A DNA stretch of 35,927 nt, taken from IMG/VR virus record IMGVR_UViG_3300007863_000006, positions 1-35,927 of that record; one strand, given 5' to 3'. This document shows positions 124 to 35,927 of this stretch, one piece after another; position 1 is the first letter of the stretch, and each line of letters opens with the position of its first letter. A model generated the notes under the pieces. The model searched no databases. It was not told where the DNA came from and saw only the letters and a program-made list of their open reading frames with translations. The position numbers and the translations under genes were made by a program. Origin of the DNA: a virus. Its lineage: Duplodnaviria > Caudoviricetes.

Positions 124-2083
124 CGTCGGGATTGGAACGACTAGTCCAGAGCATAAATTAGTCGCTATGGGTACTATTGGTTTTGGCGCTGGTGGTTACA
201 ACGGTGGTGTATTTGTAAACAATACTTCTACATCAGTTGATGAAAATTGGGGATTAGAAGTACAACGAACTAGTGGAGTTTCAGACTATAACACTAGGCT
301 TAAGTATTACCCAGTTTCAGGGGGTACAAGAAAAGCAGGTATTTACAACTCGCAAACAAGTTCTTTTTCACTTTACTCAGATTCTAATAATAATCCAAAT
401 ATAATTATACCTGACGGCAACGTCGGGATTGGGACGACTAGTCCTGGTAGCAGAAGGTTAAGTGTTGTTAAAGATACTGGTATTACATCTGGGTTTAATG
501 ATATAACAGAGTTTTTAGATACAACTTTGGGTGGTGGTGGTTCAGTAAGTTTAAATGTTGGTAGAGCAAATAGTAGTAAAAACTTAGGTAAAATGGCGTT
601 TAAATACGTTAGTTCAGGCTCTAATAGTAATGCATTGAACTTTGGGTTTTATGATGCTGATAATTTGATGACCATACAGGCGGGTGGCAACGTCGGGATC
701 GGGACGACTAGTCCTAGTGTAAAGTTACATATAAAAGGAATTGCCAATGGAACTGACGGTAAGTTATACATAACTGAAGACGCTTCTAATGGATCGTTTT
801 TTAAATATGATGGAGCTACAAATAGAGGTTCTTTAGGAGGTTTGTCTACTGGCGGAGAAGGTATTGTTGTGGATTGGTCAAGAACTGGTAATGAGGTGAG
901 GTTTTTAACAGGCAATTCAGAAAGAATGCGTATTGATTCTTCAGGCAACGTCGGTATCGGAACGACTAGTCCTGGGTTTAAGTTTGTAGTTCAAGACGAT
1001 GGTACAGATCAAATGATAGCAGATTTTAGAGATTCAAATAGTGTTTATGGATTATTGTTGAGCTCAACAGGGACAGGAGGAAAAATTGAAGGAAGAGGAA
1101 CAAACCACGATTTAACAATAAATACATCTGGGACAGGGGATATTACTTTAATACCAGGCGGCAACGTTGGTATTGGAACAACTAGTCCTAGCGCTAAGTT
1201 AGATGTAGCAGGTTCAATAAACACAAGTGGTAGTATAAATCTAACAAACGCTGGTTTAAACACAATAGCTGCTAGTAATTCTAGTAATGGTTATTTAAGG
1301 TTTTTAGTAGACCAACAAGGTGTTGCACTAACTCTTAACGCTGATACAACTTCTACGTTTGGAGGTAGAATTTATGCTGTTGATGGAAATAAAGCTACAC
1401 CAGGTTATTCCTTTGCTAGTGATCCAGATACTGGTATGTTTAGAGCCTCTGCTAATGTTTTAGTACTTGGAGTAAATGGAGATACTAGAATCAAGATAAG
1501 TAATACCGATATAGTAACTTACAAACCTCTTGCTGTTAATACTACTTCAATTACCTCTGGTGTTGCATTAGACGTTGGCGGAGTTGGTTTAATAGGAGAT
1601 TCTGGCGTTGGTGATTTTTACTTAGGCAACTACGCAACTGCTAATCATTTTAGATTTCACACTAACAATTCAAATACATATTTTGATATGAATTGTGGTG
1701 ATATATATTGGAGACAAGGAACGTCTACTAGATATCAGTTCTTTGCTTCAACCGCTAATATGACTATACAAGGTACGTTAACTCAAAATTCTGACGCAAG
1801 AACTAAGGAAAATGTAATTGAAATAAGTGATTGTATTAGTAAGGTCAAAGCTATGAGAGGTGTTTACTATAATAGGACTGATTTTAATACAGAAGTTACT
1901 AAAGTTGGTGTTATAGCACAAGAAGTTGAAGCTGTGTTACCAGAACTTGTTTTAGAATCACCTGAGACAGGATTAAAATCTGTAGCTTACTCAGAATTAA
2001 CATCAGTACTAATAAACGCAATAAAAGAGCAACAAGAAATAATAGAAGATTTAAAAACAAGAATAACTAAATTAGAAAACTAA
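2..2083 (+). CDS. C-terminal part of the giant tail fibre (continues from 30610 across the junction), with a peptidase S74 intramolecular chaperone domain at about 1790..2083
   Basis: Five GNVGIGTTSP repeats. The C-terminus SDARTKEN...GVIAQEVEAVLPELV...VAYSELTSVLINAIKEQQ...LKTRITKLE is the S74 autocleavage motif. Position 95 equals 35899, in frame with ATG 30610, so ATG 95 is internal. Confidence 0.93.
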   Translation, partial: VAGRTNTGGRFQFYTNNTNDAADYTVTPDGIMTMTMTETGNVGIGTTSPEHKLVAMGTIGFGAGGYNGGVFVNNTSTSVDENWGLEVQRTSGVSDYNTRLKYYPVSGGTRKAGIYNSQTSSFSLYSDSNNNPNIIIPDGNVGIGTTSPGSRRLSVVKDTGITSGFNDITEFLDTTLGGGGSVSLNVGRANSSKNLGKMAFKYVSSGSNSNALNFGFYDADNLMTIQAGGNVGIGTTSPSVKLHIKGIANGTDGKLYITEDASNGSFFKYDGATNRGSLGGLSTGGEGIVVDWSRTGNEVRFLTGNSERMRIDSSGNVGIGTTSPGFKFVVQDDGTDQMIADFRDSNSVYGLLLSSTGTGGKIEGRGTNHDLTINTSGTGDITLIPGGNVGIGTTSPSAKLDVAGSINTSGSINLTNAGLNTIAASNSSNGYLRFLVDQQGVALTLNADTTSTFGGRIYAVDGNKATPGYSFASDPDTGMFRASANVLVLGVNGDTRIKISNTDIVTYKPLAVNTTSITSGVALDVGGVGLIGDSGVGDFYLGNYATANHFRFHTNNSNTYFDMNCGDIYWRQGTSTRYQFFASTANMTIQGTLTQNSDARTKENVIEISDCISKVKAMRGVYYNRTDFNTEVTKVGVIAQEVEAVLPELVLESPETGLKSVAYSELTSVLINAIKEQQEIIEDLKTRITKLEN
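119..1189 (+). repeat. Linker copies 18-22 of the in-frame 30-bp repeat array (starts 119, 416, 686, 944, 1160)
   Basis: For example GGCAACGTCGGGATTGGGACGACTAGTCCT at 416 and GGCAACGTCGGGATCGGGACGACTAGTCCT at 686. Confidence 0.95.
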
Positions 2084-9135: not shown

Positions 9136-9609
9136 ATGAAAACAATTAACATTAAAGGTAATAAATATGTTACCGTAAATGAACGACTAATTTATTTTAG
9201 ACAACAAAAACAATTTAAAAACTGGCAAATATTAGAATCTTTAGTGTCAATAGATACTATAGAAGGTATCTTTAAATGTACTATAAATGATGCAGATGGC
9301 AATATAGTTGCAGTTGCTCACACGCAAGAGTATCGTGACAGTTCTTATATTAATAAAACTTCTTTTGTAGAAAATGGATTTACATCTGCATTAGGTAGAG
9401 CATTAGGTTATTTAGGTATTGGTATAGATACTGCAATAGCATCTAATGACGAAGTTACAAACGCCAAAAATAATCAAGTCTGGTTGACAGCTTCACAATT
9501 TGAGGCAACACTAAAAGGATCTGAAAAGGCAGCATTAAATGTTTTAAAAGCCTTTAAAATGAAAGATGAATACAAAGAAAAAATAAATAATCAATTTAAC
9601 TTTAAATAA
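9136..9609 (+). CDS. Putative single-strand annealing protein (Rad52/Sak-like recombinase)
   Basis: IKGNKYVTVNERL..FR...FVENGFTSALGRALGYLGIG...IAS.DEV pattern; adjacent to SSB and near an exonuclease. Confidence 0.6.
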   Translation: MKTINIKGNKYVTVNERLIYFRQQKQFKNWQILESLVSIDTIEGIFKCTINDADGNIVAVAHTQEYRDSSYINKTSFVENGFTSALGRALGYLGIGIDTAIASNDEVTNAKNNQVWLTASQFEATLKGSEKAALNVLKAFKMKDEYKEKINNQFNFK

Positions 9610-9614
9610 TAATT

Positions 9615-9902
9615 ATGAGTGAACAAAAAAAATCAATCTATGTAAACGGTGTAAGATTTTTCCCAAAGGGAGATAAAGCGCCACAAAATTTATTAGCTAA
9701 TGGTGTAATTACACCAAATGAATTAATAAAATGTTTAAAGCAAGCTGAAGTACAAGATGCTAAAACAGAATACAAAGGCGAAACACAGTTTAAAATTAAC
9801 CTTTGGCAAAATGATGACAAATCAGTTTCTATGAGTTTTAACACTTGGAAACCTGAGGGATCTAAAGAAGCAGATGAGGGGGATGGCGATTTACCTTTTT
9901 AG
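9615..9902 (+). CDS. Putative single-stranded DNA-binding protein
   Basis: 95 aa, beta-rich, with an acidic tail ending EADEGDGDLPF. Follows the SSAP gene. Confidence 0.65.
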   Translation: MSEQKKSIYVNGVRFFPKGDKAPQNLLANGVITPNELIKCLKQAEVQDAKTEYKGETQFKINLWQNDDKSVSMSFNTWKPEGSKEADEGDGDLPF

Positions 9903-10641: not shown

Positions 10642-10869
10642 ATGGAAGCAAATAAATACACACCTGTAGAAGAAGCAGCACTTTTTTTACACCAAAGAGT
10701 CAAAGCTATGGAAATAGAAATTGATAGATTAAATGATGTTAATGAATCATTATTTGATCAATATGAAATACAAAACGCTGAAATAGCTAGACTAGAAGAA
10801 TTAGTTATAAATATTAACAAACTTAAAGAAGAAAATAAACAATTAAAAAAAGCACTTATAGGATGTTAG
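10642..10869 (+). CDS. Coiled-coil hypothetical protein
   Basis: 75-aa heptad pattern, overlapping the next start. Confidence 0.65.
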   Translation: MEANKYTPVEEAALFLHQRVKAMEIEIDRLNDVNESLFDQYEIQNAEIARLEELVININKLKEENKQLKKALIGC

Positions 10870-11618
10870 TACAAAAAGATAGTAATGAATTATATCATCA
10901 ATCACCTGGTATTAGTGCAAGTGGTTTAAAGACAATATTTAAAAAATCTATATACCATTATTTAAATCAAAAACCTTTTGAGTCTAGTTCTATGGCTTTT
11001 GGTTCAGCTGTACATTGTGCAATGTTAGAGCCAGACGAGTTTTATAAAGAATATCACGTAATGCCAAAATTAGATCGTAGAACAAAAGATGGCAAAAGTC
11101 AATATGAATTGCAAAAACAAAAAGCAAGTGGCAAAATATTATTAAGTTATGATGACTTTAAAAAAATAGAACAGATATTAGTTAATTTTAGAGAACACGA
11201 TTTGGCACAAAAATTTTGTAAAGGTGATATTGAATACTCACACTACACTAAATATGACGATATAGAAGTTAGAATAAGACCTGACGTTTTAAACAAAGTA
11301 GGTAATTTTATTTGTGATGTAAAAACTTGTCAAGACAATTCACCAATGGCATTCAAAAGAGATGTGTATAAATATGCATACCATTTGCAAGCTGCATTCT
11401 ATATGGATATGTTAGGCATAAATGATTGGCGTTTTGTAGCTGTACAAAATACTTATCCTTATACTGTAGAGGTATATGCATTAGGTGAAGAACTAATAGA
11501 ACAAGGTAGAAGAGCTTGGCAAAAAGCATTTTCAGACTATAAATTATATATAGAATGTGGCATTGTATCAGGTTATAATTGGAACGATTTTAAAGATGAC
11601 GGAAGTCTAGTAATATAA
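10863..11618 (+). CDS. RecE/exodeoxyribonuclease VIII-like PD-(D/E)XK exonuclease (DUF3799-like)
   Basis: YH...ISASGLK, FGSAVHCAMLEP, RIRPD, DVKT and YHLQAAFY motifs. Confidence 0.88.
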   Translation: MLVQKDSNELYHQSPGISASGLKTIFKKSIYHYLNQKPFESSSMAFGSAVHCAMLEPDEFYKEYHVMPKLDRRTKDGKSQYELQKQKASGKILLSYDDFKKIEQILVNFREHDLAQKFCKGDIEYSHYTKYDDIEVRIRPDVLNKVGNFICDVKTCQDNSPMAFKRDVYKYAYHLQAAFYMDMLGINDWRFVAVQNTYPYTVEVYALGEELIEQGRRAWQKAFSDYKLYIECGIVSGYNWNDFKDDGSLVI

Positions 11619-12011: not shown

Positions 12012-12383
12012 ATGCGAGAAAATCCATTTAATAAATATTTAACAAAAGAGGATAAGTTACAGCATAGAATTATTAGTTATTTAAAATATCAATATCCTAG
12101 AGTGTTATATACACACGTTCCAAATGAAGGTAAACGATCTGTATTTGAGAGATATAAATTTAAGTACTTAGGAGCTAAAGCAGGTGTGCCAGATTTATTA
12201 ATATTTAAACCTAATAAAACATATTGTGGCTTGGCATTAGAATTGAAGGTGGGTTATAACAAACCTACTAAGTTACAAAAAGAATGGTTAAAAAATTTGG
12301 AGGATAATAATTGGTTAGCGTTATGTCTAAATAATTATGAAGAAATTGTAGAAACAATAGATAAATATTTAAAAAATGTATAA
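12012..12383 (+). CDS. VRR-NUC domain nuclease (putative Holliday junction resolvase)
   Basis: E..LQ..I, HVPNEGKR, GAKAGVPDL, LELK and TKLQKEW motifs. Confidence 0.88.
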   Translation: MRENPFNKYLTKEDKLQHRIISYLKYQYPRVLYTHVPNEGKRSVFERYKFKYLGAKAGVPDLLIFKPNKTYCGLALELKVGYNKPTKLQKEWLKNLEDNNWLALCLNNYEEIVETIDKYLKNV

Positions 12384-20681: not shown

Positions 20682-21875
20682 ATGGAAGAAAACGTAAAAA
20701 ATCAATTAGATCAGTTAAATACTGCTATTGATTCAAAAATTGAAAAAGCTAAAGACATTGCTGTTGAAGCATCTGTTGTACAAGCTGACGAAATCGTAAA
20801 AAGCCAAGTGTCAGAAATGACTACTAAGTTTAACGATAGACTAGATGCTATTGAAGTATCTAACAAAAAAACATTTGATGCTAGCCAACCAAGAGATTTT
20901 AAATCTGCTTTAGGAAAGGCTTTATCAGAAGGCGCAATTGACTCATTAACTAAAGGTAATTCAAGAAGTGCATCATTTCAGATTAAAGCTGATATGACTA
21001 CTGCAGCTGACTTTAGTGGTGAAGTAATACCTGCTGATAGAGTACCAGGATATTTTTTCGATCCTACTAGACCAGTACACGTAAGAAGTTTAATCTCTGG
21101 TGGTTCTACTGTAAGTGATGTAATAAGATATGTAACAGAATCTGCATACAATAATGGTGCTGCACCAGCTGCTGAGGGAGCAACATTAGCACAGTCTGAT
21201 TTTAATATGACTGCATCAACTGCATTAGTGCAAAAAATTGGTACTTACTTCAGAATTTCTGAAGAAATGCTAGCTGACACGCCACAATTAACATCTTATT
21301 TATCTGCAAGAGCGCCAGAAAAATTATTAGAAATAGAAGATGCACAACTTTTATCTGGTAATGGTTCTGCTCCAAATTTAAGTGGTATCATTGGTGCTGC
21401 TGCTGATTTTGATGTAAGTTCAAATGGTAAGTTCTACCACGCTGTAGAAAGTGCTAATGAATTTGATGTAATTGTTGCTGCTTTAAATCAATTAAGTCTT
21501 GCTAACTATAGCGCTGATTGTATCTTATTAAATCCAACTGATTTTCATAAGATATTATTATTAAAAGATACAACTAACAACTATATCAAGGACCAAGTAT
21601 ATGCTGGGTTACAACCAACGTTTATGGGTGTTAAAGTTATCTTAAATACAGCTATGGCTGCTGGATCATTCTTGATTGGTAATTTTGCTGCTGGTTCACA
21701 AATGTGGATTAGAGAAAACCTAAACGTAGAGTTCTTTAGAGAAGATGGAACTAACGTAAGAGATGGTTTTGTTACAGTAAGAGTATCTGAAAGAGTTGCT
21801 TTAGCTAACTATTTGCCAAATGCTTATGTAAATGGCGCATTTAGTACAGCAAAAGCTGCACTAGAAACAGCGTAA
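20682..21875 (+). CDS. Major capsid protein (HK97 fold, N-terminal coiled-coil scaffold domain)
   Basis: AEGA..., KIGTYFRISEEMLAD, QLLSGNG, LNPTDF..I...KD and VRVSERV motifs. Confidence 0.96.
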   Translation: MEENVKNQLDQLNTAIDSKIEKAKDIAVEASVVQADEIVKSQVSEMTTKFNDRLDAIEVSNKKTFDASQPRDFKSALGKALSEGAIDSLTKGNSRSASFQIKADMTTAADFSGEVIPADRVPGYFFDPTRPVHVRSLISGGSTVSDVIRYVTESAYNNGAAPAAEGATLAQSDFNMTASTALVQKIGTYFRISEEMLADTPQLTSYLSARAPEKLLEIEDAQLLSGNGSAPNLSGIIGAAADFDVSSNGKFYHAVESANEFDVIVAALNQLSLANYSADCILLNPTDFHKILLLKDTTNNYIKDQVYAGLQPTFMGVKVILNTAMAAGSFLIGNFAAGSQMWIRENLNVEFFREDGTNVRDGFVTVRVSERVALANYLPNAYVNGAFSTAKAALETA

Positions 21876-21894
21876 TCTAATAATTACACTAACT

Positions 21895-21924
21895 AAAGAG
21901 GGCGCTTCGGCGCTCTTTTTTTTT
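21895..21924 (+). terminator. Intrinsic terminator after the capsid gene
   Basis: AAAGAGGGCGC-TTCG-GCGCTCTTT hairpin with a C(UUCG)G loop, plus T-run. Confidence 0.92.
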
Positions 21925-21986
21925 GCCTAATCTTATCTGTAAAATAATAAAATGAAAAAAAACTTTTAAATTAAATGAAAAAATAT

Positions 21987-22016
21987 TTTGTATTTTGTAA
22001 ATAAATGTTATCTTTG
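21987..22016 (+). promoter_or_regulatory. Bacteroidota-type promoter of the moron (TTTG ... TATCTTTG)
   Basis: TTTG at 21987..21990 and -7 box TATCTTTG at 22009..22016, 18 nt apart. Confidence 0.65.
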
Positions 22017-22049
22017 TATAGAACAACAATAACAATTAAATTATATATT

Positions 22050-22196
22050 ATGAACTATCAAGAATTTATTCTAAAAGCTTTACAAGTTGTAGCAATAAAA
22101 CCAACAAAAGAAGAAATGCAATTTGCATATATAGTATTGTATAATGGTTTTGGTTTATCAGTAAAAGAATCAATAATAGAGTCAATTAAATTATAA
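22050..22196 (+). CDS. Hypothetical protein, 48 aa (start revised from 22005)
   Basis: The promoter box lies within the longer ORF call, and ATG 22050 has an A-rich leader. Confidence 0.6.
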   Translation: MNYQEFILKALQVVAIKPTKEEMQFAYIVLYNGFGLSVKESIIESIKL

Positions 22197-22206
22197 AAAC
22201 AATAAT

Positions 22207-22317
22207 ATGCAATCAATAATCACATTTATTAAAAAAGACAAAGACAATTGGAAATGGCTATTAGGTTTTTATGCCATAGCTACAGTATTAACTTTACTTT
22301 TAACAATACAAATATAA
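22207..22317 (+). CDS. Single-TM micro-protein, 36 aa (not in the ORF track)
   Basis: MQSIITFIKKDKDNWKWLLGFYAIATVLTLLLTIQI*, TAATG-coupled to the next ORF. Confidence 0.65.
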   Translation: MQSIITFIKKDKDNWKWLLGFYAIATVLTLLLTIQI

Positions 22318-22451
22318 TGGATGCTAGAGATTACTTAGATAATTTATTAGACCCTTACAATCAATTTGAACACGAATGTCCTGTATGTGGTAGACCACAG
22401 AATTTTAAAACTGCTTGTAGTTCAATTTGTGAAGAAGCTGAAATGATATGA
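22317..22451 (+). CDS. Small Zn-finger protein, 44 aa (start revised from 22248)
   Basis: MDARDYLDNLLDPYNQFEHECPVCGRPQNFKTACSSICEEAEMI, with C-X2-C-X9-C-X3-C. Confidence 0.7.
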   Translation: MDARDYLDNLLDPYNQFEHECPVCGRPQNFKTACSSICEEAEMI

Positions 22452-22591
22452 ATAAAAAACAAATTAATTTTTGGTTAAGTGTTTTATTAATTTTTTTTAC
22501 AATAAGGCAAGGTTTGTTATTTTATGACGTGTTAGGTTCTTTATTTTTCTTAATTTTGACATTAGCTATTTTAAGTAATAGAAATATATAA
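22448..22591 (+). CDS. Two-TM micro-protein, 47 aa (not in the ORF track)
   Basis: MNKKQINFWLSVLLIFFTIRQGLLFYDVLGSLFFLILTLAILSNRNI*, with an ATGA overlap. Confidence 0.62.
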   Translation: MNKKQINFWLSVLLIFFTIRQGLLFYDVLGSLFFLILTLAILSNRNI

Positions 22592-22605
22592 TTATTTGTT
22601 AGTCT

Positions 22606-22643
22606 AAAAAAGCCAACTGTTTTAATCGATAGTTGGTTTTTTT
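22606..22643. terminator. Intrinsic terminator, possibly bidirectional
   Basis: AAAAAAGCCAACTGT...ATAGTTGGTTTTTTT hairpin. Confidence 0.8.
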
Positions 22644-22655
22644 GTATATTAGAGC

Positions 22656-23027
22656 GTGGACAACAATATGCGAGGCTGTTACGCTGAATACAAATTTGCT
22701 ACTATGGCAATGGAATGTAATATGCTAGTATCTATGCCACTTCTTGATTCATCGCCTTACGATTGTATTGTTGAACTTCCTAATGGTAAACTAAAAAAAA
22801 TACAAATTAAATCTACAAATAAAAGCGAACATCCTAAAGGTATTCATATTACTTTACGATATTCTGACATTAGCTATACTACAAAAGAAGTTGATTATTT
22901 TGCCATATGGATAAATGTACGCAATGGATTTTATATAATTAAAAATAATGGTAAAATGGCTGCATTTAGAATATCTAAGAATGGTAAATATTCAAAAAAT
23001 TTTAATAACTTTGCTAAAATTGTTTAA
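22656..23027 (+). CDS. Free-standing PD-(D/E)XK endonuclease (group I intron-associated/I-Ssp6803I-like family)
   Basis: G..AE..F......VSMPL.DSSPYDCIVE......KIQIKS...YT..EVDYFA motifs. Confidence 0.8.
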   Translation: MDNNMRGCYAEYKFATMAMECNMLVSMPLLDSSPYDCIVELPNGKLKKIQIKSTNKSEHPKGIHITLRYSDISYTTKEVDYFAIWINVRNGFYIIKNNGKMAAFRISKNGKYSKNFNNFAKIV

Positions 23028-27792: not shown

Positions 27793-30609
27793 ATGGCTAC
27801 ATTATTCGGAACTAAAATACAGGACACTTATGACGGACTCTTAAAAGTTACCGATAACATAGGTATTACTGGTACTAAAAAATTTATTACTGATGGTCTA
27901 GGGGTCAATTCTAGTGTAAAAATATCTAGTTTAGATTTTGAAGTAGCTAACTTTTTTTTTATAGACGTTTTAAGTGGTCAAGACCCATCCAATTATAAAG
28001 TAGGTATAAACACATCATCGCCAACACAAATGTTACACGTTGTTGGTAATATGCGTTTAACAGGTGCTTTTTATGACTCTAACAATGTTACAGGTACGTC
28101 AGGACAAATATTAAGTTCAACTGCATCTGGTACTGATTGGGTAGATATAACTGCTATACAAACATTAAGTGGTTCTGGTACAGCAAATTATTTAACTAAA
28201 TGGACTAATACTACTGTTCTTGGTAATAGTATATTATACGAAACTAGTTCTAAAATAGGAATAGGTACAACATCGCCTACTGAAAAATTACACGTTAATG
28301 GTAATTTAGCTTTACAAGGGCAAATAAACTTAATGGTAGTAAATGAAATATATGGTATTATAAAACCAGAGTTTGCTAAAATTAATTATTATTTAGATGA
28401 TGGCGCTACTACTACAGGCACACCTACTATTACAATGTCTGGTGACGGTCATTCGAGATTAGGTATTGGTGTTGCTAGTCCTAGTGAAGCATTACACGTT
28501 ATTGGTGATGCACTTATAACAGGTGATTCACACGCTGATGCGTTTAAACCAGCAGTAACAGCTAATGCTATAAAATTTAAAAATTTTGCTAGTACAGAAT
28601 TAATGCGTATTACTGACACTGGTTTAGTTGGTATTGCTAATAACAGTCCATCTTATACATTAGATGTAACAGGTACAGCTAGAGTTTCTGGCGACACATA
28701 TTTTGTAACACAAGCTAATAGTGATGATAGTAATAAAGTTGCTACAACAGCTTATGTTAAAAACTTGATAGAAGAAATACCAGCAGGTTTAATTTTTCAA
28801 GGCACTTGGGATGCACTTAATAATACGCCTACTTTAGCAAGTGGCACAGGTACAACAGGGCATTTCTATATAGTATCAACTGATGGCTCTACTAACTTAG
28901 ATGGTATAACAGATTGGAAGGTAGGCGATTGGGCAGTTTTTGTAGAGCAAGGAGTAACAGATCAATGGGAAAAAATTGATAACTCTTCTGTATTAGATGG
29001 ATTTGGCACAGGTGGGACTATAACTGCGTGGGCTGGGTCTGGTACTTCAAATACTTTAACTAACTCTCCTATAACTTTTTCAGGTAATGATGTATCTTTT
29101 GCAGGGGACATTACTGTATCAGGCAATCAATTTTTTAATGGTGAGTTTATTGAAGGTGACGGAAAAGAAATGTTTAGATACACCGATGGCTGGCTTAGAA
29201 TAAATGAAGATAATGATTTTGGAAGTGGTATATATTGTGGAACTGGTTTATTAAGAACTGATGGTGAATTTCAAGTAGGAGGTAGTGGGCAATATGCTAA
29301 AATTACATCTACAGGTGCTGCAACTTTTGCAGGTGACATTACTAGCGCTGGCTTAACAGTTGACTATACAGGTAATCGTACTGGTGATGCTGGTATTTTA
29401 GTAACTAACGACAATAGTGATTGGGGTATAAAAGTAGATAAAGACGGTACAACTGACTACGGTATCTTATCGCAAACAGATGGTGAAAATGCAATAGTTG
29501 TAAGAAATGCAGCTGGTGTTAATAAGATACAGCTACAAGGTGATGGTGACGCAACTTTTGCAGGTGATATAACTTTAGGTGATGATTTAAATTTTACTAC
29601 AAATGGCTTTGCAGATATATCAAATACTGGTACGGGCGCTATGCGATTTAAACCAAGCAGTCAAACACTTGCTTTAACTTTGACAGGCGCTAACGCAACT
29701 TTTGCAGGTTCAGTAGGAATAGCTGCAGCACCATTACAATCTAAATTGGATATATTAAATAATGGAGATTATGATTCTCATACTGGACACGCATTAGCAA
29801 TAAATTCAAACGCATCTAACGCTTATACATCTATGTATATGGGTGCTGATGATAGTGTTGATGCTGCATATATACAATCAGCAGGAAGAAACACATCTTT
29901 TACAAGTAAGAAATTACTATTAAATCCAAATGGAGGAAATGTAGGAATTGGACTAACAAATCCACAAGCTCCGTTGTCATTTGCTAAGTTAGTTGGTCCT
30001 AAAATAGATTTTTACCACAATACAGTTAATAGTGATAGATATGGTATAGAAGTACAAAGTAGTGAACTAAGAATACACAGTGGTGCGCAAGGAAACAGCA
30101 CTGGTGGTATTACATTTGGTAAAAAAACAACAAGTACTTTTACTGAAGCAATGCGTATTACCAATGCAGGCTCTGTGGGAATTGGAACAACTAGTCCTAA
30201 TACAAAATTACAAGTCTATGGAACTTCCGCAGTCCCATCGGTTAGTGGAACTTTGCAAGGAGGTATTTTTTCTATAAAAGGAAGCTCAACGGTCTTACTT
30301 GATATGGGTACTACAGGTTCTCCAGGATATTATACTTGGATGCAGGCTCACGATGCAGGTAATGGTGTAAATTATAAATTAGCTATTAATCCACTTGGCG
30401 GAAATGTCGGAGTTGGGAATGCTAATCCTCAATCAAAACTACACGTTGCTGGTGGTATTCAAATGGCTAATGACACAGATACAGCTTCAGCTAGTAAAGT
30501 AGGCACACTAAAATATTACACGTCAGGAAATAACTCTTATGTTGATATGTGTATGCAAACAGGCGCAACAACATACGAATGGATTAATATAGTACAAAAT
30601 AATTGGTAA
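27793..30609 (+). CDS. Tail fibre protein 1 (proximal fibre, 938 aa)
   Basis: Gly/Thr/Ser-rich with about 7 degenerate VGIGTTSP motifs, ATFAG repeats and KVATTAYV. No S74 domain. Confidence 0.85.
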   Translation: MATLFGTKIQDTYDGLLKVTDNIGITGTKKFITDGLGVNSSVKISSLDFEVANFFFIDVLSGQDPSNYKVGINTSSPTQMLHVVGNMRLTGAFYDSNNVTGTSGQILSSTASGTDWVDITAIQTLSGSGTANYLTKWTNTTVLGNSILYETSSKIGIGTTSPTEKLHVNGNLALQGQINLMVVNEIYGIIKPEFAKINYYLDDGATTTGTPTITMSGDGHSRLGIGVASPSEALHVIGDALITGDSHADAFKPAVTANAIKFKNFASTELMRITDTGLVGIANNSPSYTLDVTGTARVSGDTYFVTQANSDDSNKVATTAYVKNLIEEIPAGLIFQGTWDALNNTPTLASGTGTTGHFYIVSTDGSTNLDGITDWKVGDWAVFVEQGVTDQWEKIDNSSVLDGFGTGGTITAWAGSGTSNTLTNSPITFSGNDVSFAGDITVSGNQFFNGEFIEGDGKEMFRYTDGWLRINEDNDFGSGIYCGTGLLRTDGEFQVGGSGQYAKITSTGAATFAGDITSAGLTVDYTGNRTGDAGILVTNDNSDWGIKVDKDGTTDYGILSQTDGENAIVVRNAAGVNKIQLQGDGDATFAGDITLGDDLNFTTNGFADISNTGTGAMRFKPSSQTLALTLTGANATFAGSVGIAAAPLQSKLDILNNGDYDSHTGHALAINSNASNAYTSMYMGADDSVDAAYIQSAGRNTSFTSKKLLLNPNGGNVGIGLTNPQAPLSFAKLVGPKIDFYHNTVNSDRYGIEVQSSELRIHSGAQGNSTGGITFGKKTTSTFTEAMRITNAGSVGIGTTSPNTKLQVYGTSAVPSVSGTLQGGIFSIKGSSTVLLDMGTTGSPGYYTWMQAHDAGNGVNYKLAINPLGGNVGVGNANPQSKLHVAGGIQMANDTDTASASKVGTLKYYTSGNNSYVDMCMQTGATTYEWINIVQNNW

Positions 30610-31391
30610 ATGAGTAAAAAATATACAACAAATTTTTTAGAAGATACAAATGGGTCAACTGGCGCATCTAATCAAGTTTTAATATCTACGCCTAGTGGTA
30701 TAGACTGGGTCGATGGCTCAGGGTCAAGTATTATAGGTGGTCCTTACTTACCACTTACAGCTGGTTCAACAAAACCTTTGACAGGTACTTTGTATGGAAC
30801 AAATACAAATTGGAGTGGTAGCGGAGATTACGCTGGCAGTATGACTTTAGGTACAGGAGCATCAACTGCTGAAGCTCATTTGACAATTGGGCAGGGAAGA
30901 ACAGACAATGGTTATTCATATATTGATTTAGTAGGAGACGCAACATATACAGATTTTGGTCTTAGAATAATTAGAAGTAACACAGGACCAAACACTACAT
31001 CAGGTATATATCATAGAGGTACAGGTAATTTAGAGATACAAGCTACAGATTCTGCTTCAATATTATTAAAAACTAACAACACGTTAGCATTAACTTTAGG
31101 TTCAAACCAAAACGCAACTTTTGCAGGAAATGTAGGAATAGGAGCAGCGCCAGTAGGAAACCCAGGTACTAAGTTTTTAGCTGTTGGTACAGCAGGTTCG
31201 GTAGCTGGTGGAATACAATTATGGGCAGCTAATAACCAAGCACATTATTTACAATTTGGAGATGCTAATAGTGGTGGTGAAGTTTATAGGGGTGGTATTG
31301 GTTATAATCACTTATCAGAAACTTTGTTATTTCTTCAAAATAGTTCTACTGCTTTAAGTTTTACAGGTAGTCAAGTAGCAACTTTTGCAGG
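29320..31391 (+). repeat. Five exact copies of the 14-mer GCAACTTTTGCAGG (ATFAG) at 29320, 29551, 29695, 31114 and 31378
   Basis: Read directly. The copies span both fibre genes, with partial copies near 29071 and 29092. Confidence 0.88.
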
Positions 31392-34300
31392 TGTTATAGG
31401 TGTAAATGGTTCTACAACTGCTAATGTACCTATTACTGCAACTACAACTTCTGGTTACGAAGATGTTGCTTATTTTAAATCATTAGGAACAAACATAGAT
31501 GCAAGGATTAATTTAATACCAACAGGAACTGGTGATGGGGTTGTAAACTCAACAGCTAATGGTTTAATATTACAAGCAAGTGGTGTTGATAGAGTTAATA
31601 TTACAAATGCAGGCAACGTCGGGATCGGGACAACTTCGCCTGTTGGTAAATTGAACGTTGCTCTACCTGCTGATAGTACTGGAAATGTTGCTAGTTGGAG
31701 TTCTAATCAAGTTGTATTTACTAGAGGGGGAACAAGTACTTCTCAAGGTTTAGGTTTTTCTGTACACGATGTAAATAACACCGCTACAATATCTTCTTTG
31801 ACTCCTGCGGTTACGTGGTCTGATTTAAATTATAGAGCAAAAAATCACGCTTTTTATAGTAATGGCGCTATCCTAGGCATATATCAGAACATATCCGGCA
31901 ACGTCGGGATTGGAACGACTAGTCCTAGCGCTAAGTTAGAAGTAGCAGGTGGAGCAGATTCTATAGTTAAAGTACTAGGAACAACCACAGCCGCAAGATT
32001 AGATTTACAGACTAATTCATATCATAAATTTATACAAACAATAGAGTCTAATGGTCGTTTTAGACTTTATAACCAAACAACAAGTTCAGAGCAATTAACA
32101 GTTTTAAACAACGGCAATGTCGGGATAGGGACGGCTACGCCTAGTCAGAAACTAGAAGTTAATGGTATTGCAAGAGCCGAAGCTGTTAACGTGTATGGAG
32201 CAGGAGATAGTTCTTCAACCTCTCCACAGATTTATAGTCCATCAACAGGGGCTTTTGCTATTAGTGGTAATGGTTCAGAAAGAATGCGTATCACCTCAGC
32301 TGGCAACGTTGGTATCGGGACGACTAGTCCTTCCCAAAAACTAAACGTTAACGGTAGTATTGGTTTACCATATACAGGGTACTTACTATCCACCACAGAT
32401 GTAGGAAATAAAATAGAATTACATAACGGAAGCGGTATAATGAATTTTTATACCAACGCGTCTCCTAGATTAAGTATAGCCTATGCCACAGGCAACGTCG
32501 GTATCGGAACGACTGGGCCAGTGAGTTTGTTACATATAAAAGGAGCTGACCCGGTATTTACAATACAAGATAGTTCTACTGGTACCGCTCAAGCAAGCTC
32601 AACTCTTCGTTTGGGGGAGTCTGGTTCAGGCGGTGTATTAGACGTTTATTGGGATATAAAGCAAGCATCTGACGCTGCAAACACTCACTTAGAAATAAAT
32701 CATAGTACAAGCGGAAACGCTCTAACTATATTAGATAATAAAAACGTCGGAATCGGGACGGATAGTCCTGCCACGAAATTACAAGTAAACAGTGGATCTG
32801 TTACCGCCTCTGCGCAGTTTACTGGAACATCATCGAATTCCGAAGTATTTATAGGTACTAGTGGAGTACAATCTGGGTATGTTAATTTAGTATTTTATAG
32901 TAATAGTGGTAACGCTCAAATCTGGAAAAGTGGAACTGGTTACTCAGGTTATGGTGGTACTAGCGCTTTAAATATTTATAATAGTAACGGTAAGATAGCA
33001 TTCCATCCTGCTGGCAATGCTAATGCAATGCTTATTGATACTAACAGCAACGTCGGGATAGGGACGACTGGGCCTGCAACTAAATTAGAAGTATCGTCTA
33101 GTTTAACAAGTGGAATTAAAGTTACAAATTCAGGTACTATTAATGGCGAAGCGGGTATTGAAGCATACCACACTGGGGCGCAAGCCGGCACTGCTTATGC
33201 AGGGTATATAACTAAAACAGGAGCTGGGGGTACCAATGTTGGAATTTATACAGCCGCGAGCGGCGCTACAAATAATTACGGATTAATTGTTGGTTCTGGA
33301 AACGTCGGTATTGGAGATACAACTCCTACAAGTAAACTTACTATTTTAGGAACAAGCACTGCTGCTTCTAACACGCCTTCTGATGCTATTGTTGATATAC
33401 ACGGAACTTCAACTGCTCATTTACTTATGGGAGTTGCTAATGTTTCTCCTTATGGTGCGTGGATAAATACTGACGCAACTGGTCAACCGCTTATTTTACA
33501 GGGCGTAGGCGGCAACGTCGGGATTGGGGCGACTTCGCCTGATGGTAACTTAGAAGTTGTCACTAGCGCAATTGTTAGTGGAGCGTCAGATACTGTAAAC
33601 AATGTTCTTATAGGTTTACAAGCGGCAAACAGACCTACTATTATATTAGATACGGCAGATACTACATATACAAATAGAACTTGGAATATAACAAACGTTG
33701 GTTCTGCAGGTAAATTATTTATTGGCAGAAATGGACTTGATGTTATGGTAATGGACAATAGCGGCAACGTCGGTATTGGGACGGCTAGTCCTGCTGTTAA
33801 ACTACAAGTTGCAAATGCTGGTGAAGTAATAGTTAGATCTTCAATGACAGCTGCTGATGGTTATAGAGGTGGTTTTGAAGCTGACAACCAACATACTGGA
33901 GGTACTATTTGGTCAATGTTTTCGACTAATGATAGTGATGGTTATTTTGGTGGTGGAAAATATGTTATAGCTAATGAATCTATGGGTGGTGTTGATGCTA
34001 ACACTACTGCTAAATTTGTTATTGATGGTAGTGGAAAAGTCGGGATCGGGACTACTTCGCCGGCTGTAAAACTTCACGTTGTTGATACTACTACTTTAGT
34101 TGGTGCTTTTGTAAGTAACAATACAACAAGAACAGAGTTAGCTATAGATAATACATCAACAAATAATGTTAGATTAGGTTTAAAAGCAACACCTAGCGGT
34201 GCAATTATAGACAGTACAAATCACTATGGAAGTAATGTACAGCCTTTAATATTTCAATTGAGTGCATCAGAAAAAATGCGTATTACAAGTGGCGGCAACG

Positions 34301-35927
34301 TAGGTATCGGGACGACTAGTCCTAATGGTAAATTACATATAGATAAAGATAACGCTAACAGTTCTGTAATAATATCAAGGTCAGGTAATAATATAGCTGC
34401 TTCGACAGGTATAGGTAGTATTACATTTCCTGCGGAGTACAATTCATCATATACAGACTACGCTGCTATCCAAGCTTACTCAAATAACTTAAGCTCAGTG
34501 AGAGGTTCTTTAGATTTTAAAGTTAAATCTACAAGTGGAAATCTTTTAACTGGTATGACTGTTTATGGAACTATGTCAGGTCCAAACGTCGGGATCGGGA
34601 CGGCTAGTCCTACTACTACATTAGATATAAGGACAGATACAGGAGTACTAATAAAAGGAGCAACTTCAGCATCAAACGGTAAACTTAAGTTTATACCAGC
34701 TTCTGGTGGACGTCAATATAACTTTGAAAACGATAGCTCTAGTTTTAAAATAGTTGATGCGTCGGCGGGTTCTACTAGAATGTATTTTCATTATAATGGA
34801 AACTTAGGTATTGGGACGACTTTGCCTTCAAATCAATTACACGTGCATACAGACACCGATAATTCCTATGGAATAAGAATAGAAGGTAGCACTAATAACG
34901 CCGCGGGTGTTTGGACTGGTTTAGGTATTGGAGGAGAAAGTTCTAACACTAAATCGGCTGTTTTATTTGTAGATGCAGGATTAAGTTACGCTAGAGGAAA
35001 ACTTCATTTATGCGTAAACAATGCTCAAGATCAAACTAGCGCAACCCCAGCAGACGCTAAATTAACAGTAAGTAATGACGGTAACGTCGGGATTGGTACA
35101 ACTACACCCCTTACTAAGTTAGAAATTAAGGGTACTGCTTCAACAAGAAACGCTCTGTCTAACATACTTACTATAAATGGGGGTGAGAACGTAAGTAATC
35201 CTTATGACGGCTTTGGCGTAGGCACAGTATTTAGAGGTAGAGATTACAGTAATGCGCTTAGAGATTATGCGTATATTTATGGAGTTATACAAAATCAAAC
35301 GTCTTCTAGTACACCCGCTGGAGACCCTGGATTTAAAAGTCAATTACGTTTTTATACTAATACTGGAGGGGCTTCTGCAACTTTGCCCACACAAAAGATG
35401 GTTATTACCTCTGACGGCGACGTAGGGATCGGGACGACTAATCCTGCGGCTAAGTTAGATATAGCATTAACCACTGGACCTCAACTAAGATTAACAAGAA
35501 ATGCTGGAACAGAGTACACAACACTATACTCAGACAGTGCTGGTGGACTAGTAATTTCTTCATACTCTAGTGGCACATCTAATTATCAAATATTTAGTAT
35601 AAACTCAAGTGAAAAAGTAAGAATAATTAACAATGGCAACGTCGGGATCGGAACGACTGTTCCTGGAGAAAAACTTCACGTTGTTGGTAACGTTTTTTTA
35701 AATGCGAATAGTGCTTTTAAAGCAAGTTACAATAATACTGATAATTATCACGGCAGTACGAGGTGGGCAGGTTTGCAGTTAGGAAACAATGGAGTAAATA
35801 AAATAGTTGCTGGTAGAACAAACACAGGAGGAAGATTCCAGTTTTATACAAACAATACTAATGATGCTGCAGATTATACCGTAACACCAGATGGTATAAT
35901 GACTATGACTATGACTGAAACTGGCAA
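30610..35927 (+). CDS. Giant tail fibre 2, N-terminal part; full gene 30610..35804 plus 1..2083, 2,425 aa (missing from the ORF track)
   Basis: Manual translation from ATG 30610 (MSKKYTTNFLEDTNGSTGASNQVL...) found no stop to the window end. It joins in frame to the ORF ending at 2083. Confidence 0.93.
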   Translation, partial: MSKKYTTNFLEDTNGSTGASNQVLISTPSGIDWVDGSGSSIIGGPYLPLTAGSTKPLTGTLYGTNTNWSGSGDYAGSMTLGTGASTAEAHLTIGQGRTDNGYSYIDLVGDATYTDFGLRIIRSNTGPNTTSGIYHRGTGNLEIQATDSASILLKTNNTLALTLGSNQNATFAGNVGIGAAPVGNPGTKFLAVGTAGSVAGGIQLWAANNQAHYLQFGDANSGGEVYRGGIGYNHLSETLLFLQNSSTALSFTGSQVATFAGVIGVNGSTTANVPITATTTSGYEDVAYFKSLGTNIDARINLIPTGTGDGVVNSTANGLILQASGVDRVNITNAGNVGIGTTSPVGKLNVALPADSTGNVASWSSNQVVFTRGGTSTSQGLGFSVHDVNNTATISSLTPAVTWSDLNYRAKNHAFYSNGAILGIYQNISGNVGIGTTSPSAKLEVAGGADSIVKVLGTTTAARLDLQTNSYHKFIQTIESNGRFRLYNQTTSSEQLTVLNNGNVGIGTATPSQKLEVNGIARAEAVNVYGAGDSSSTSPQIYSPSTGAFAISGNGSERMRITSAGNVGIGTTSPSQKLNVNGSIGLPYTGYLLSTTDVGNKIELHNGSGIMNFYTNASPRLSIAYATGNVGIGTTGPVSLLHIKGADPVFTIQDSSTGTAQASSTLRLGESGSGGVLDVYWDIKQASDAANTHLEINHSTSGNALTILDNKNVGIGTDSPATKLQVNSGSVTASAQFTGTSSNSEVFIGTSGVQSGYVNLVFYSNSGNAQIWKSGTGYSGYGGTSALNIYNSNGKIAFHPAGNANAMLIDTNSNVGIGTTGPATKLEVSSSLTSGIKVTNSGTINGEAGIEAYHTGAQAGTAYAGYITKTGAGGTNVGIYTAASGATNNYGLIVGSGNVGIGDTTPTSKLTILGTSTAASNTPSDAIVDIHGTSTAHLLMGVANVSPYGAWINTDATGQPLILQGVGGNVGIGATSPDGNLEVVTSAIVSGASDTVNNVLIGLQAANRPTIILDTADTTYTNRTWNITNVGSAGKLFIGRNGLDVMVMDNSGNVGIGTASPAVKLQVANAGEVIVRSSMTAADGYRGGFEADNQHTGGTIWSMFSTNDSDGYFGGGKYVIANESMGGVDANTTAKFVIDGSGKVGIGTTSPAVKLHVVDTTTLVGAFVSNNTTRTELAIDNTSTNNVRLGLKATPSGAIIDSTNHYGSNVQPLIFQLSASEKMRITSGGNVGIGTTSPNGKLHIDKDNANSSVIISRSGNNIAASTGIGSITFPAEYNSSYTDYAAIQAYSNNLSSVRGSLDFKVKSTSGNLLTGMTVYGTMSGPNVGIGTASPTTTLDIRTDTGVLIKGATSASNGKLKFIPASGGRQYNFENDSSSFKIVDASAGSTRMYFHYNGNLGIGTTLPSNQLHVHTDTDNSYGIRIEGSTNNAAGVWTGLGIGGESSNTKSAVLFVDAGLSYARGKLHLCVNNAQDQTSATPADAKLTVSNDGNVGIGTTTPLTKLEIKGTASTRNALSNILTINGGENVSNPYDGFGVGTVFRGRDYSNALRDYAYIYGVIQNQTSSSTPAGDPGFKSQLRFYTNTGGASATLPTQKMVITSDGDVGIGTTNPAAKLDIALTTGPQLRLTRNAGTEYTTLYSDSAGGLVISSYSSGTSNYQIFSINSSEKVRIINNGNVGIGTTVPGEKLHVVGNVFLNANSAFKASYNNTDNYHGSTRWAGLQLGNNGVNKIVAGRTNTGGRFQFYTNNTNDAADYTVTPDGIMTMTMTETG
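31612..35927 (+). repeat. Linker copies 1-17 of the in-frame 30-bp repeat array (starts 31612, 31897, 32113, 32302, 32491, 32740, 33046, 33298, 33511, 33763, 34033, 34294, 34582, 34798, 35080, 35416, 35635; copy 18 starts at 35923)
   Basis: Consensus GGCAACGTCGGGATCGGGACGACTAGTCCT, with a period of 189-336 bp that is always a multiple of 3. Confidence 0.95.
35805..35927. repeat. Terminal direct repeat, right copy
   Basis: Identical to 1..123. Confidence 0.97.

Follow-up and report, generated by a model that had tools for sequence, protein, structure and literature searches.

Integrons and shufflons are repeat-spacer arrays whose units are gained, lost and reordered. We observed an array of this layout within a single protein-coding gene, the giant tail-fibre open reading frame (ORF) of IMG/VR virus record IMGVR_UViG_3300007863_000006, whose full 35,927 nucleotides are referred to here as the window. 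In this gene, copies of a 30-bp coding linker separate modules of fibre sequence, and comparison with other arrays shows that fibre modules have been shuffled at the linkers. The array thus resembles integrons and shufflons in its repeat-spacer organization and in the gain, loss and reordering of its units, but differs from them in that no integrase or invertase, hairpin or fixed crossover was found for the window, and in consisting of direct repeats within one reading frame.

The principle of such exchange is already known from the fibres of T-even phages, where the tail-fibre and adhesin genes gp37/gp38 recombine in or near conserved motifs between hypervariable segments (Tetart et al. 1996, 1998, as described in PMC3157838) and draw on a population-wide parts library (PMC3157838). 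As in the T-even fibres described there, conserved motifs of the window gene alternate with variable segments, breaks fall in or near the motifs, and crossovers are spread over the motif rather than occurring at one base. Unlike in the T-even cases covered by the available part of that article, whole modules of 53-102 amino acids move singly and change order, a gene can hold up to 24 linkers, exchange takes place between siphovirus-like and podovirus-like genomes, and the DNA of the linker is spelled in rare codons with a strand polarity; PMC3157838 nowhere uses the word "synonymous".

Three further systems share individual features with the array. The MAT fibres of Bdellovibrio (PMC10769870; 8OND, 8OML, 8OJN and 8OL4) have a matching motif, an S74 chaperone and trimeric beta-helix units, and their tips were exchanged in evolution. 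MATs, however, are displayed on the cell surface and carry a signal peptide as well as a conserved ∼130-amino-acid domain at the N terminus, whereas the window fibre, which we do not class as a MAT, is encoded where the HK97-like structural module of a phage ends, and the accessible text treats the MAT loop as structure only, without DNA-level conservation or a crossover role. In the T4-type phages RB49 and phi1, the PeSL cassettes (PMC2839356) likewise use short repeated DNA for recombination that shuffles modules, with mini-circles being formed; as described there, PeSLs are promoter/terminator elements that lie between genes and flank entire ones, whereas the linker is coding, in frame and without a stem-loop. 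Rad52-like phage recombinases work on short, diverged homology (PMC3945230), a situation similar to that of the window, with its Sak-like fold gene and exonuclease VIII, and of its exchange partners, with Erf. In the cases presented there the homologies are incidental, whereas here one repeated motif serves as a standard joint. Our literature searches, whose coverage stops short of subscription journals, found no paper describing the linker.

The window is one circular phage genome of ∼35.8 kb, its last 123 bases (35805-35927, unstranded) being identical to the first 123 and ending with the first 5 bases of linker 18; the linker copy at 119 is therefore the same copy as the one starting at 35923. 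The fibre ORF, on the + strand like all linkers and modules, starts at 30610, runs to 35927 with PHROG tail-fibre matches and continues through the overlap to 2083, giving 2,425 amino acids across the circular join without an internal stop. Its 3' part (124-2083) holds modules 18 to 21, the tip region and a Peptidase_S74 chaperone domain (PF13884, 1790-1954, + strand; E 6e-13, above the cut-off), so that the protein ends as an S74-chaperoned trimeric fibre does. A recount bore out the 22 linkers and 21 modules given in an earlier note on this DNA, with 17 linkers at 31612-35664 and 5 at 119-1189, all 22 being direct repeats. Given with their matches to the 30-nucleotide consensus, linkers 1 to 17 lie at 31612-31641 (26/30), 31897-31926 (28/30), 32113-32142 (25/30), 32302-32331 (28/30), 32491-32520 (25/30), 32740-32769 (24/30), 33046-33075 (26/30), 33298-33327 (21/30), 33511-33540 (25/30), 33763-33792 (27/30), 34033-34062 (23/30), 34294-34323 (28/30), 34582-34611 (26/30), 34798-34827 (22/30), 35080-35109 (23/30), 35416-35445 (27/30) and 35635-35664 (27/30), and linkers 18 to 22 at 119-148 (27/30), 416-445 (29/30), 686-715 (30/30, the consensus itself), 944-973 (28/30) and 1160-1189 (25/30, the last copy and more AT-coded). 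The modules between them measure 159-306 bp each and are mutually unrelated, a blastp comparison among all 21 returning a single pair (E 0.007).

Seven of these 21 modules have homologues of at least 60% amino acid identity in other contigs. The earlier note had proposed the linker as a DNA crossover site, at which module homology should begin and end with different modules next to it, and this is what we observed: each blastn match into the array corresponded to one module. Module 1 (31642-31896) has a homologue in L407 (78% over 332 nucleotides, linkers included). Module 5 (32521-32739) recurs in L050 (78% nucleotide identity) with both neighbours different, and as single-module pieces in sequencing runs X1, X2, X3 and X5; module 8 (33328-33510) recurs in L005 (94%) and L113 (82%), again with different neighbours, and module 14 (34828-35079) in L176 (81%). 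The module following the homologue differs for module 17 (35665-35922; L349, 96%) and for module 18 (149-415; L013, 73%), and at linker 18 blastn homology ends at +31 (L349) and +55 (L094). Module 9 (33541-33762) is present at 93.7% nucleotide identity in the close relative L009 and at 97.7% in L067, both neighbours differing in each case. The latter belongs to the podovirus-like genome G006 (66 kb), which encodes GroEL and a crAss-like muzzle and whose terminase and portal belong to other families, indicating that exchange crosses phage groups. Conversely, the close relatives L009, L028, L119 and L120 have 1, 0, 0 and 0 modules in common with the window, although the adjacent DUF7936, tube and chaperone proteins of L009 and L028 are 97-100% identical to those of the window and L119 shows 95% nucleotide identity downstream.

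The same pattern was seen across the wider collection of arrays, which after removal of those contained in longer ones comprised 273 arrays with 1,716 linkers and 1,370 modules in 1,053 clusters (modules below 60 or above 600-700 nucleotides were dropped in clustering). With modules above 350 nucleotides left out, 172 of 186 pairs of near-identical modules (at least 88% nucleotide identity) matched over the entire module, and in the non-duplicate arrays the neighbours were non-homologous at 182 of the 197 junctions that could be scored; 72 pairs from duplicate arrays were counted separately (11 different and 115 same junctions). In the near-identical pairs, identity was 0.9-1.0 on the side of the module and fell to the background level across the linker. 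Comparison of arrays further revealed reordering (L020 versus L068; L050 versus L325), insertion of a single module (L044 versus L211), deletion of three modules (L027 versus L215) and, in modules 7-12 of L033, an exact tandem duplication of three modules, real or due to assembly, all bounded by linkers. The record holding L027 and L215 (G007, 129.5 kb) contains two terminase genes ∼64 kb apart and probably represents two related genomes joined. The view that modules come and go, duplicate and change order without loss of frame is thus supported, and module order in related phages varies with breaks at linkers.

Cultured phages gave similar results. In the cyanophage S-TIM54, modules 4 and 7 are shared with S-TIM61/66/5 (85% and 96.5%) and have other neighbours there, so that isolates show similar module swaps, which weighs against assembly as a general cause. 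In the fibre gene upstream of the array, the order of the first three modules is kept in the close relative L223 and one of them is replaced in L324. The 5.5-kb stretches of S-CRES1 and S-CRES2, the cultured phages closest to the linker spelling (23-27 of 30), differ at 7 sites, all in or at most 9 nucleotides from linkers 3, 5 and 7, and the S-CRES2 alleles at these sites are those of other linkers in the same gene. Since third positions of linkers are also more alike within arrays than between them (identity 0.56 versus 0.49), linkers may have converted one another, assembly error being a caveat for the S-CRES pair. The homogenisation by recombination that had been proposed earlier therefore stands in a weaker form. 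Taken together, all 90 same-context pairs showed no excess of in-place linker turnover (0.012 versus 0.010 mismatches per base), leaving the S-CRES pair as its sole case.

What sets the linker apart is its choice of rare codons, more than the sameness of its copies: pairwise identity among the copies averages 23.6/30, compared to 21.4 in codon-resampled copies (maximum 22.3 in 1,000 draws). Six codon counts made by hand in the earlier note proved exact (GGC 15/19, AAC 19/20, GTC 17/21, GGG 13/22 and 14/22, ACG 16/20), against background frequencies in 38 other ORFs of 0.16 for GGC, 0.23 for AAC, 0.05 for GTC, 0.04 for GGG and 0.05 for ACG. The bias exceeded both genome-wide usage (binomial p 3e-9 to 7e-19) and the codon use of the modules themselves (p 4e-8 to 7e-26), these p values being descriptive since the copies are non-independent. 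A preference overlooked earlier is ATC at the linker isoleucine (11/22 versus a background of 0.04). The G+C content at third codon positions (GC3) reaches 0.53 in linkers, compared to 0.19 in modules and 0.13 in other genes. The upstream fibre gene (27793-30609, + strand; 938 amino acids) served as an internal control. It holds 7 copies of a similar peptide motif, just 1 of them GNVGIG, in AT-rich codons, GC3 at linker codons 1-7 being 0.12 compared to 0.70 in the array; another AT-coded GNVGIG lies at 31126, shortly 5' of the array. A similar peptide with ordinary codons in the adjacent fibre gene means that selection on the peptide does not explain the bias.

Beyond the window, the bias persisted in 471 linkers without a match to the query and was present in weaker form in 141 protein-selected linkers (ACG 0.38, CCT 0.67). 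Linker GC3 exceeded module GC3 (∼0.2) in 162 of 167 mostly DNA-selected arrays. With query-matching linkers excluded, as in the 471-linker test and the covariation analysis, codon choice was position specific: Gly1 is GGC rather than GGG (675 versus 21) and Gly4 and Gly6 show the reverse, and Thr7 favours ACG and Thr8 the common ACT. A 26-nucleotide version of the linker matched 86 stretches in IMG/VR, 132 listed in metagenomes (∼460 estimated) and 2 in 596 Gb of cell genomes, and a second variant matched 60 viral stretches; full flanks were available for the first 80 loci of the IMG/VR and metagenome searches. The linker peptide occurs with other spellings in cultured pelagiphages, S-TIM, S-SM2, S-PRM1, S-CBP1 and phiFa, and the spelling is thus a property of the gene pool rather than of the peptide. 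In arrays with at least five linkers, first and last copies were more degenerate than internal ones (22.5 and 23.1 versus 24.6 of 30), as expected if end copies undergo less conversion. The two cell-genome matches, L162 in a Paceibacterota and L161 in a Proteobacteria metagenome-assembled genome, are arrays of the same kind, and one L162 module has homologues of 50-60% identity in phage arrays.

The synonymous sites are also polarised. Across 1,608 contexts, query-matching linkers included, third positions are rich in C and poor in G from codons -2 to 3 and rich in G and T and poor in C from codon 4 to about 13, the switch falling at linker nucleotides 9-12. The polarity holds for every amino acid occurring at variable positions, and it reaches into non-conserved flanking codons before fading by about codons -3 and +13. 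The codon preceding the linker shows enrichment of C in each of its 7 residue classes (for example, Ala, 0.21 versus 0.08; Asn, 0.60 versus 0.33), and codon 9 shows enrichment of G in each of its 4 four-fold classes (Ser, 0.62 versus 0.06). Two linked haplotypes, C9-G12 and A9-T12, were observed across arrays (z 6.3 versus within-array shuffles). The polarity may reflect directional conversion of linkers. The gradient fits annealed 3' tails, since a mismatch is tolerated best if the strand undergoing extension carries G or T; deamination of exposed strands would yield the same pattern. Neutral homogenisation would be expected to drift to AT, so that some bias appears to be needed.

The position of crossovers within the linker was not constant. 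A fixed crossover point was rejected, since at least 24 of 57 junctions violate any single cut position, although later conversion could also blur a fixed cut. Two genes of the window could account for recombination at short homologies. One is a RecE-like exonuclease VIII (DUF3799 family match; 10863-11618, + strand), presumably acting by 5'-3' resection. The other, 1.3 kb upstream of it, is the ORF at 9136-9609 (+ strand), whose structural model resembles Rad52/Sak-type single-strand annealing proteins and which is our candidate catalyst. Its best six matches of 48,161 chains were RAD52, Mgm101 and phage Sak (Z 6.2-8.0 over 78-101 residues, root mean square deviation 2.8-3.5), with a best Foldseek E of 3e-3; in Atlas it matched PF27148 only, a profile search of PDB sequences gave no match, and its single-sequence fold reached a predicted local distance difference test score (pLDDT) of 35. 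We consider a Rad52-superfamily annealase likely, though not proven. As modelled, the proteins of PF27148 (Slr1353_N, "dsRBD-like"; 1,132 relatives found) appear to be Rad52/Sak-type annealases. A search without a positive control found this annealase family absent from all 5 partner records, two of which, the partner genomes examined further, carry Erf instead, in both cases beside the same exonuclease family (DUF3799). Between the two genes, an ORF of 95 amino acids with an acidic C-terminal tail (9615-9902, + strand) has no family match; from its position and tail, we take it to be a possible single-stranded DNA-binding protein.

We therefore favour, as the probable explanation, that linkers are the points at which single fibre modules are exchanged between phages, most likely through short shared homology joined in frame by a phage exonuclease and a Rad52-type annealase (the predicted Sak-like protein here, Erf in partners), without a site-specific recombinase. 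During co-infection or intragenic recombination, resected 3' tails would anneal across two linkers, and any linker-to-linker swap would fold, the linker encoding a predicted capping-loop peptide between trimeric beta-helix units. Repeated annealing may convert linkers toward the consensus of the pool, and this conversion would be directional if the strand whose 3' tip is extended tolerates mismatches best with G or T. In the 3' half, G and T would then build up on the top strand; in the 5' half they would do so on the bottom strand, giving C on top. The GC-rich spelling would thereby be kept despite AT-rich mutation pressure. The modules would supply different predicted surface clefts for host receptors.

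A bolder version of this explanation, which we put forward tentatively and hold to be rather less likely to be right than wrong, is that the linker is a self-reinforcing universal connector. Strand-biased annealase conversion would both write and keep its polarised GC-rich spelling, making it the common currency of an ocean-wide, recombinase-free pool of more than 1,000 fibre modules, traded singly by siphovirus-like and podovirus-like phages of marine Flavobacteria, with up to two dozen predicted receptor-binding clefts in series per virion. If this were true, the polarity of recombination could be read from the C-to-G/T switch in any phage gene.

Several observations weigh against exchange by annealing at the linkers or against parts of it. 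The longest exact run between window linkers averages 10.4 nucleotides, and 2.2% of linker pairs reach 20 exact nucleotides and 7.8% reach 23 with one mismatch; exact runs thus fall short of the 23-27 bp quoted for Red-beta in the available part of PMC3945230. Closeness to the consensus predicts mobility weakly, 8% of modules being mobile when the linker matches at 19/30 or less and 14-19% above this, without a gradient. Swaps also occur at AT-coded linkers, both in S-TIM and in the upstream gene of L324, and the GC spelling is therefore not required. The annealase assignment relies on a model with a pLDDT of 68 and Z of 8 or less. As to polarity, Ile5 (ATC) and Gly6 (GGA common, GGT rare) are exceptions, the arrays of S-TIM and pelagiphages show no polarity, and a diffuse crossover zone would lead one to expect a less sharp switch than that at nucleotides 9-12. 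Consensus errors from short reads at repeats could account for the S-CRES differences. Finally, in Logan contigs from seven runs, single modules appeared at very different depths, several continuing into unlike sequence, and none of the contigs listed bridged two adjacent window modules, leaving the module order of the window itself without independent support. The best public run held at most 0.26 of the words of the array. Joints in Logan contigs, with sides of 20-53 letters (mostly 30 or fewer) and mostly linker-to-linker, were left out of the evidence, and window modules uncovered in these runs were given no evidential weight.

The swaps at AT-coded linkers and the weak link between consensus score and mobility would also be expected under the best-surviving alternative, in which recombination is non-specific or illegitimate, only breaks at linkers give a foldable trimer, and the GC spelling is an imported ancestral relic. 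The role of the motif as a structural boundary in MAT fibres fits this explanation as well. In a phmmer search covering fibre amino acids 335-797, the peptide matched Bdellovibrio MAT chains centred on the motif (4 entries, 8OND best; E 2e-11 to 3e-4). A motif of this form makes up the capping loops that limit a surface cleft on the trimeric beta-helix, according to PMC10769870, in which the printed consensus is one position shorter than the linker peptide, a symbol having probably been lost. Given this match, each module is likely one beta-helix unit with its own predicted cleft. A relic spelling should nevertheless decay, yet modules have drifted to a GC3 of ∼0.2 and linkers remain higher in nearly all arrays; the bias extends into the flanking codons that are not conserved; and near-identical modules have more diverged flanking linkers, pointing to turnover inside the linker. 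We consider structural filtering by itself unlikely.

Less probable still is that rare linker codons slow translation for co-translational folding or trimerisation, swapping being a side effect of the conserved peptide. GTC, GGG, ATC and ACG are indeed among the rarest codons of the genome and stand exactly at domain borders. This explanation does not account for codon choice that reverses between Gly1 and Gly4 or Gly6 and between Thr7 and Thr8, nor for the similar peptide of the upstream gene, which has no such bias.

We also assign a slight chance, marginally below that of translation slowing, to a dedicated protein, a site-specific recombinase or nicking nuclease of phage or host, that recognises the linker as in integrons or shufflons; the earlier note had suggested both such recognition and integron-like behaviour, and neither was upheld. 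In its favour are a partial dyad around nucleotides 13-14 with three complementary synonymous pairs, the sharp switch at nucleotides 9-12, and two window nucleases of unknown target (VRR-NUC, 12012-12383; PD-(D/E)XK, 22656-23027). However, the dyad pairs showed no covariation (z 0.5, 0.9 and 0.6), none of the 8 folds contained a stable linker hairpin (z -0.5 to 1.2) or was better than shuffles, and a hairpin or dyad site was rejected on these grounds. The variable junctions argue likewise. The tyrosine recombinase family PF00589 was detected in none of 5 genomes, with the control positive in 14 of 14, and no recombinase family was found among the 43 window ORFs. Linker spellings are, moreover, lineage specific, other phage lineages using others. 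An integron was thus rejected for want of PF00589, an attC-like hairpin and a fixed crossover, and a shufflon or invertible cassette in view of the 22 direct repeats and the lack of a recombinase family among the 43 ORFs; these ORFs also gave no match to an integrase or a reverse transcriptase, and a diversity-generating retroelement was rejected on the latter account. Most improbable of all is that the mosaics are assembly chimeras formed at a repeat close in length to a small k-mer, for although the comparisons involve mostly metagenome contigs, G007 probably joins two genomes, Logan contigs break at linkers and the window itself closes inside the array, swaps are present in cultured isolates, identical long arrays (L010/L054, L015/L058 and L008/L025) come from different assemblies, as do many swapped modules of 72-95% identity, and a codon bias cannot be made by an artefact.

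Exchange of single modules at a standard joint, across unrelated groups, provides base-level and population-scale evidence on how marine phage fibres are rebuilt. It bears on the old question of whether mosaic boundaries in phages arise from illegitimate recombination or from short linker homologies, which becomes testable now that a site of 30 bp, a candidate pair of enzymes and a prediction of direction are at hand. In addition, the modules form a natural catalogue of stackable trimeric domains.

The remaining gene content of the window includes HK97-like head genes, a long-tail module and a primase-helicase; no Rfam family was matched and no tRNA gene was found in the window. Among cultured phages none is closely related to it (best matches 39% for the terminase and 34% for the capsid), and a blastn search of 50,697 phage records with the array yielded just 6 weak linker-level matches. 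Sequencing runs with parts of the array are marine by record. The terminases of module-sharing phages are related to those of Flavobacterium and Cellulophaga phages (44% to elemo phages; Flavobacteriia hosts in the names of 86 of 87 records), from which we infer marine Flavobacteria as the host. The DUF7936 gene 3' of the fibre (2123-2455, + strand), possibly encoding a fibre assembly or tip protein, has homologues close to the array in 88 of the 137 viral loci selected by DNA.

A second joint fixed at the DNA level, GCA ACT TTT GCA GG (ATFAG), is present in both fibre genes, at 29320, 29551, 29695, 31114 and 31378 and in degenerate form at 29092. In related arrays its codons are GCA in 89, ACT in 89, TTT in 88 and GCA in 82 of 92 copies, and Logan pieces begin at two of its sites, 29320 and 31378; this AT-coded joint may be a second crossover family. 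The fibre tip region is also replaced in close relatives (window 1208-1975 versus L117-L120, L065 and L142), which rejoin the window at ∼1976, directly beyond the Pfam match to S74. In the relatives L223 and L224, sequence that the window has between its capsid gene and PD-(D/E)XK nuclease (21875-22656) is different or missing, with homology breaks at 22054-22189.

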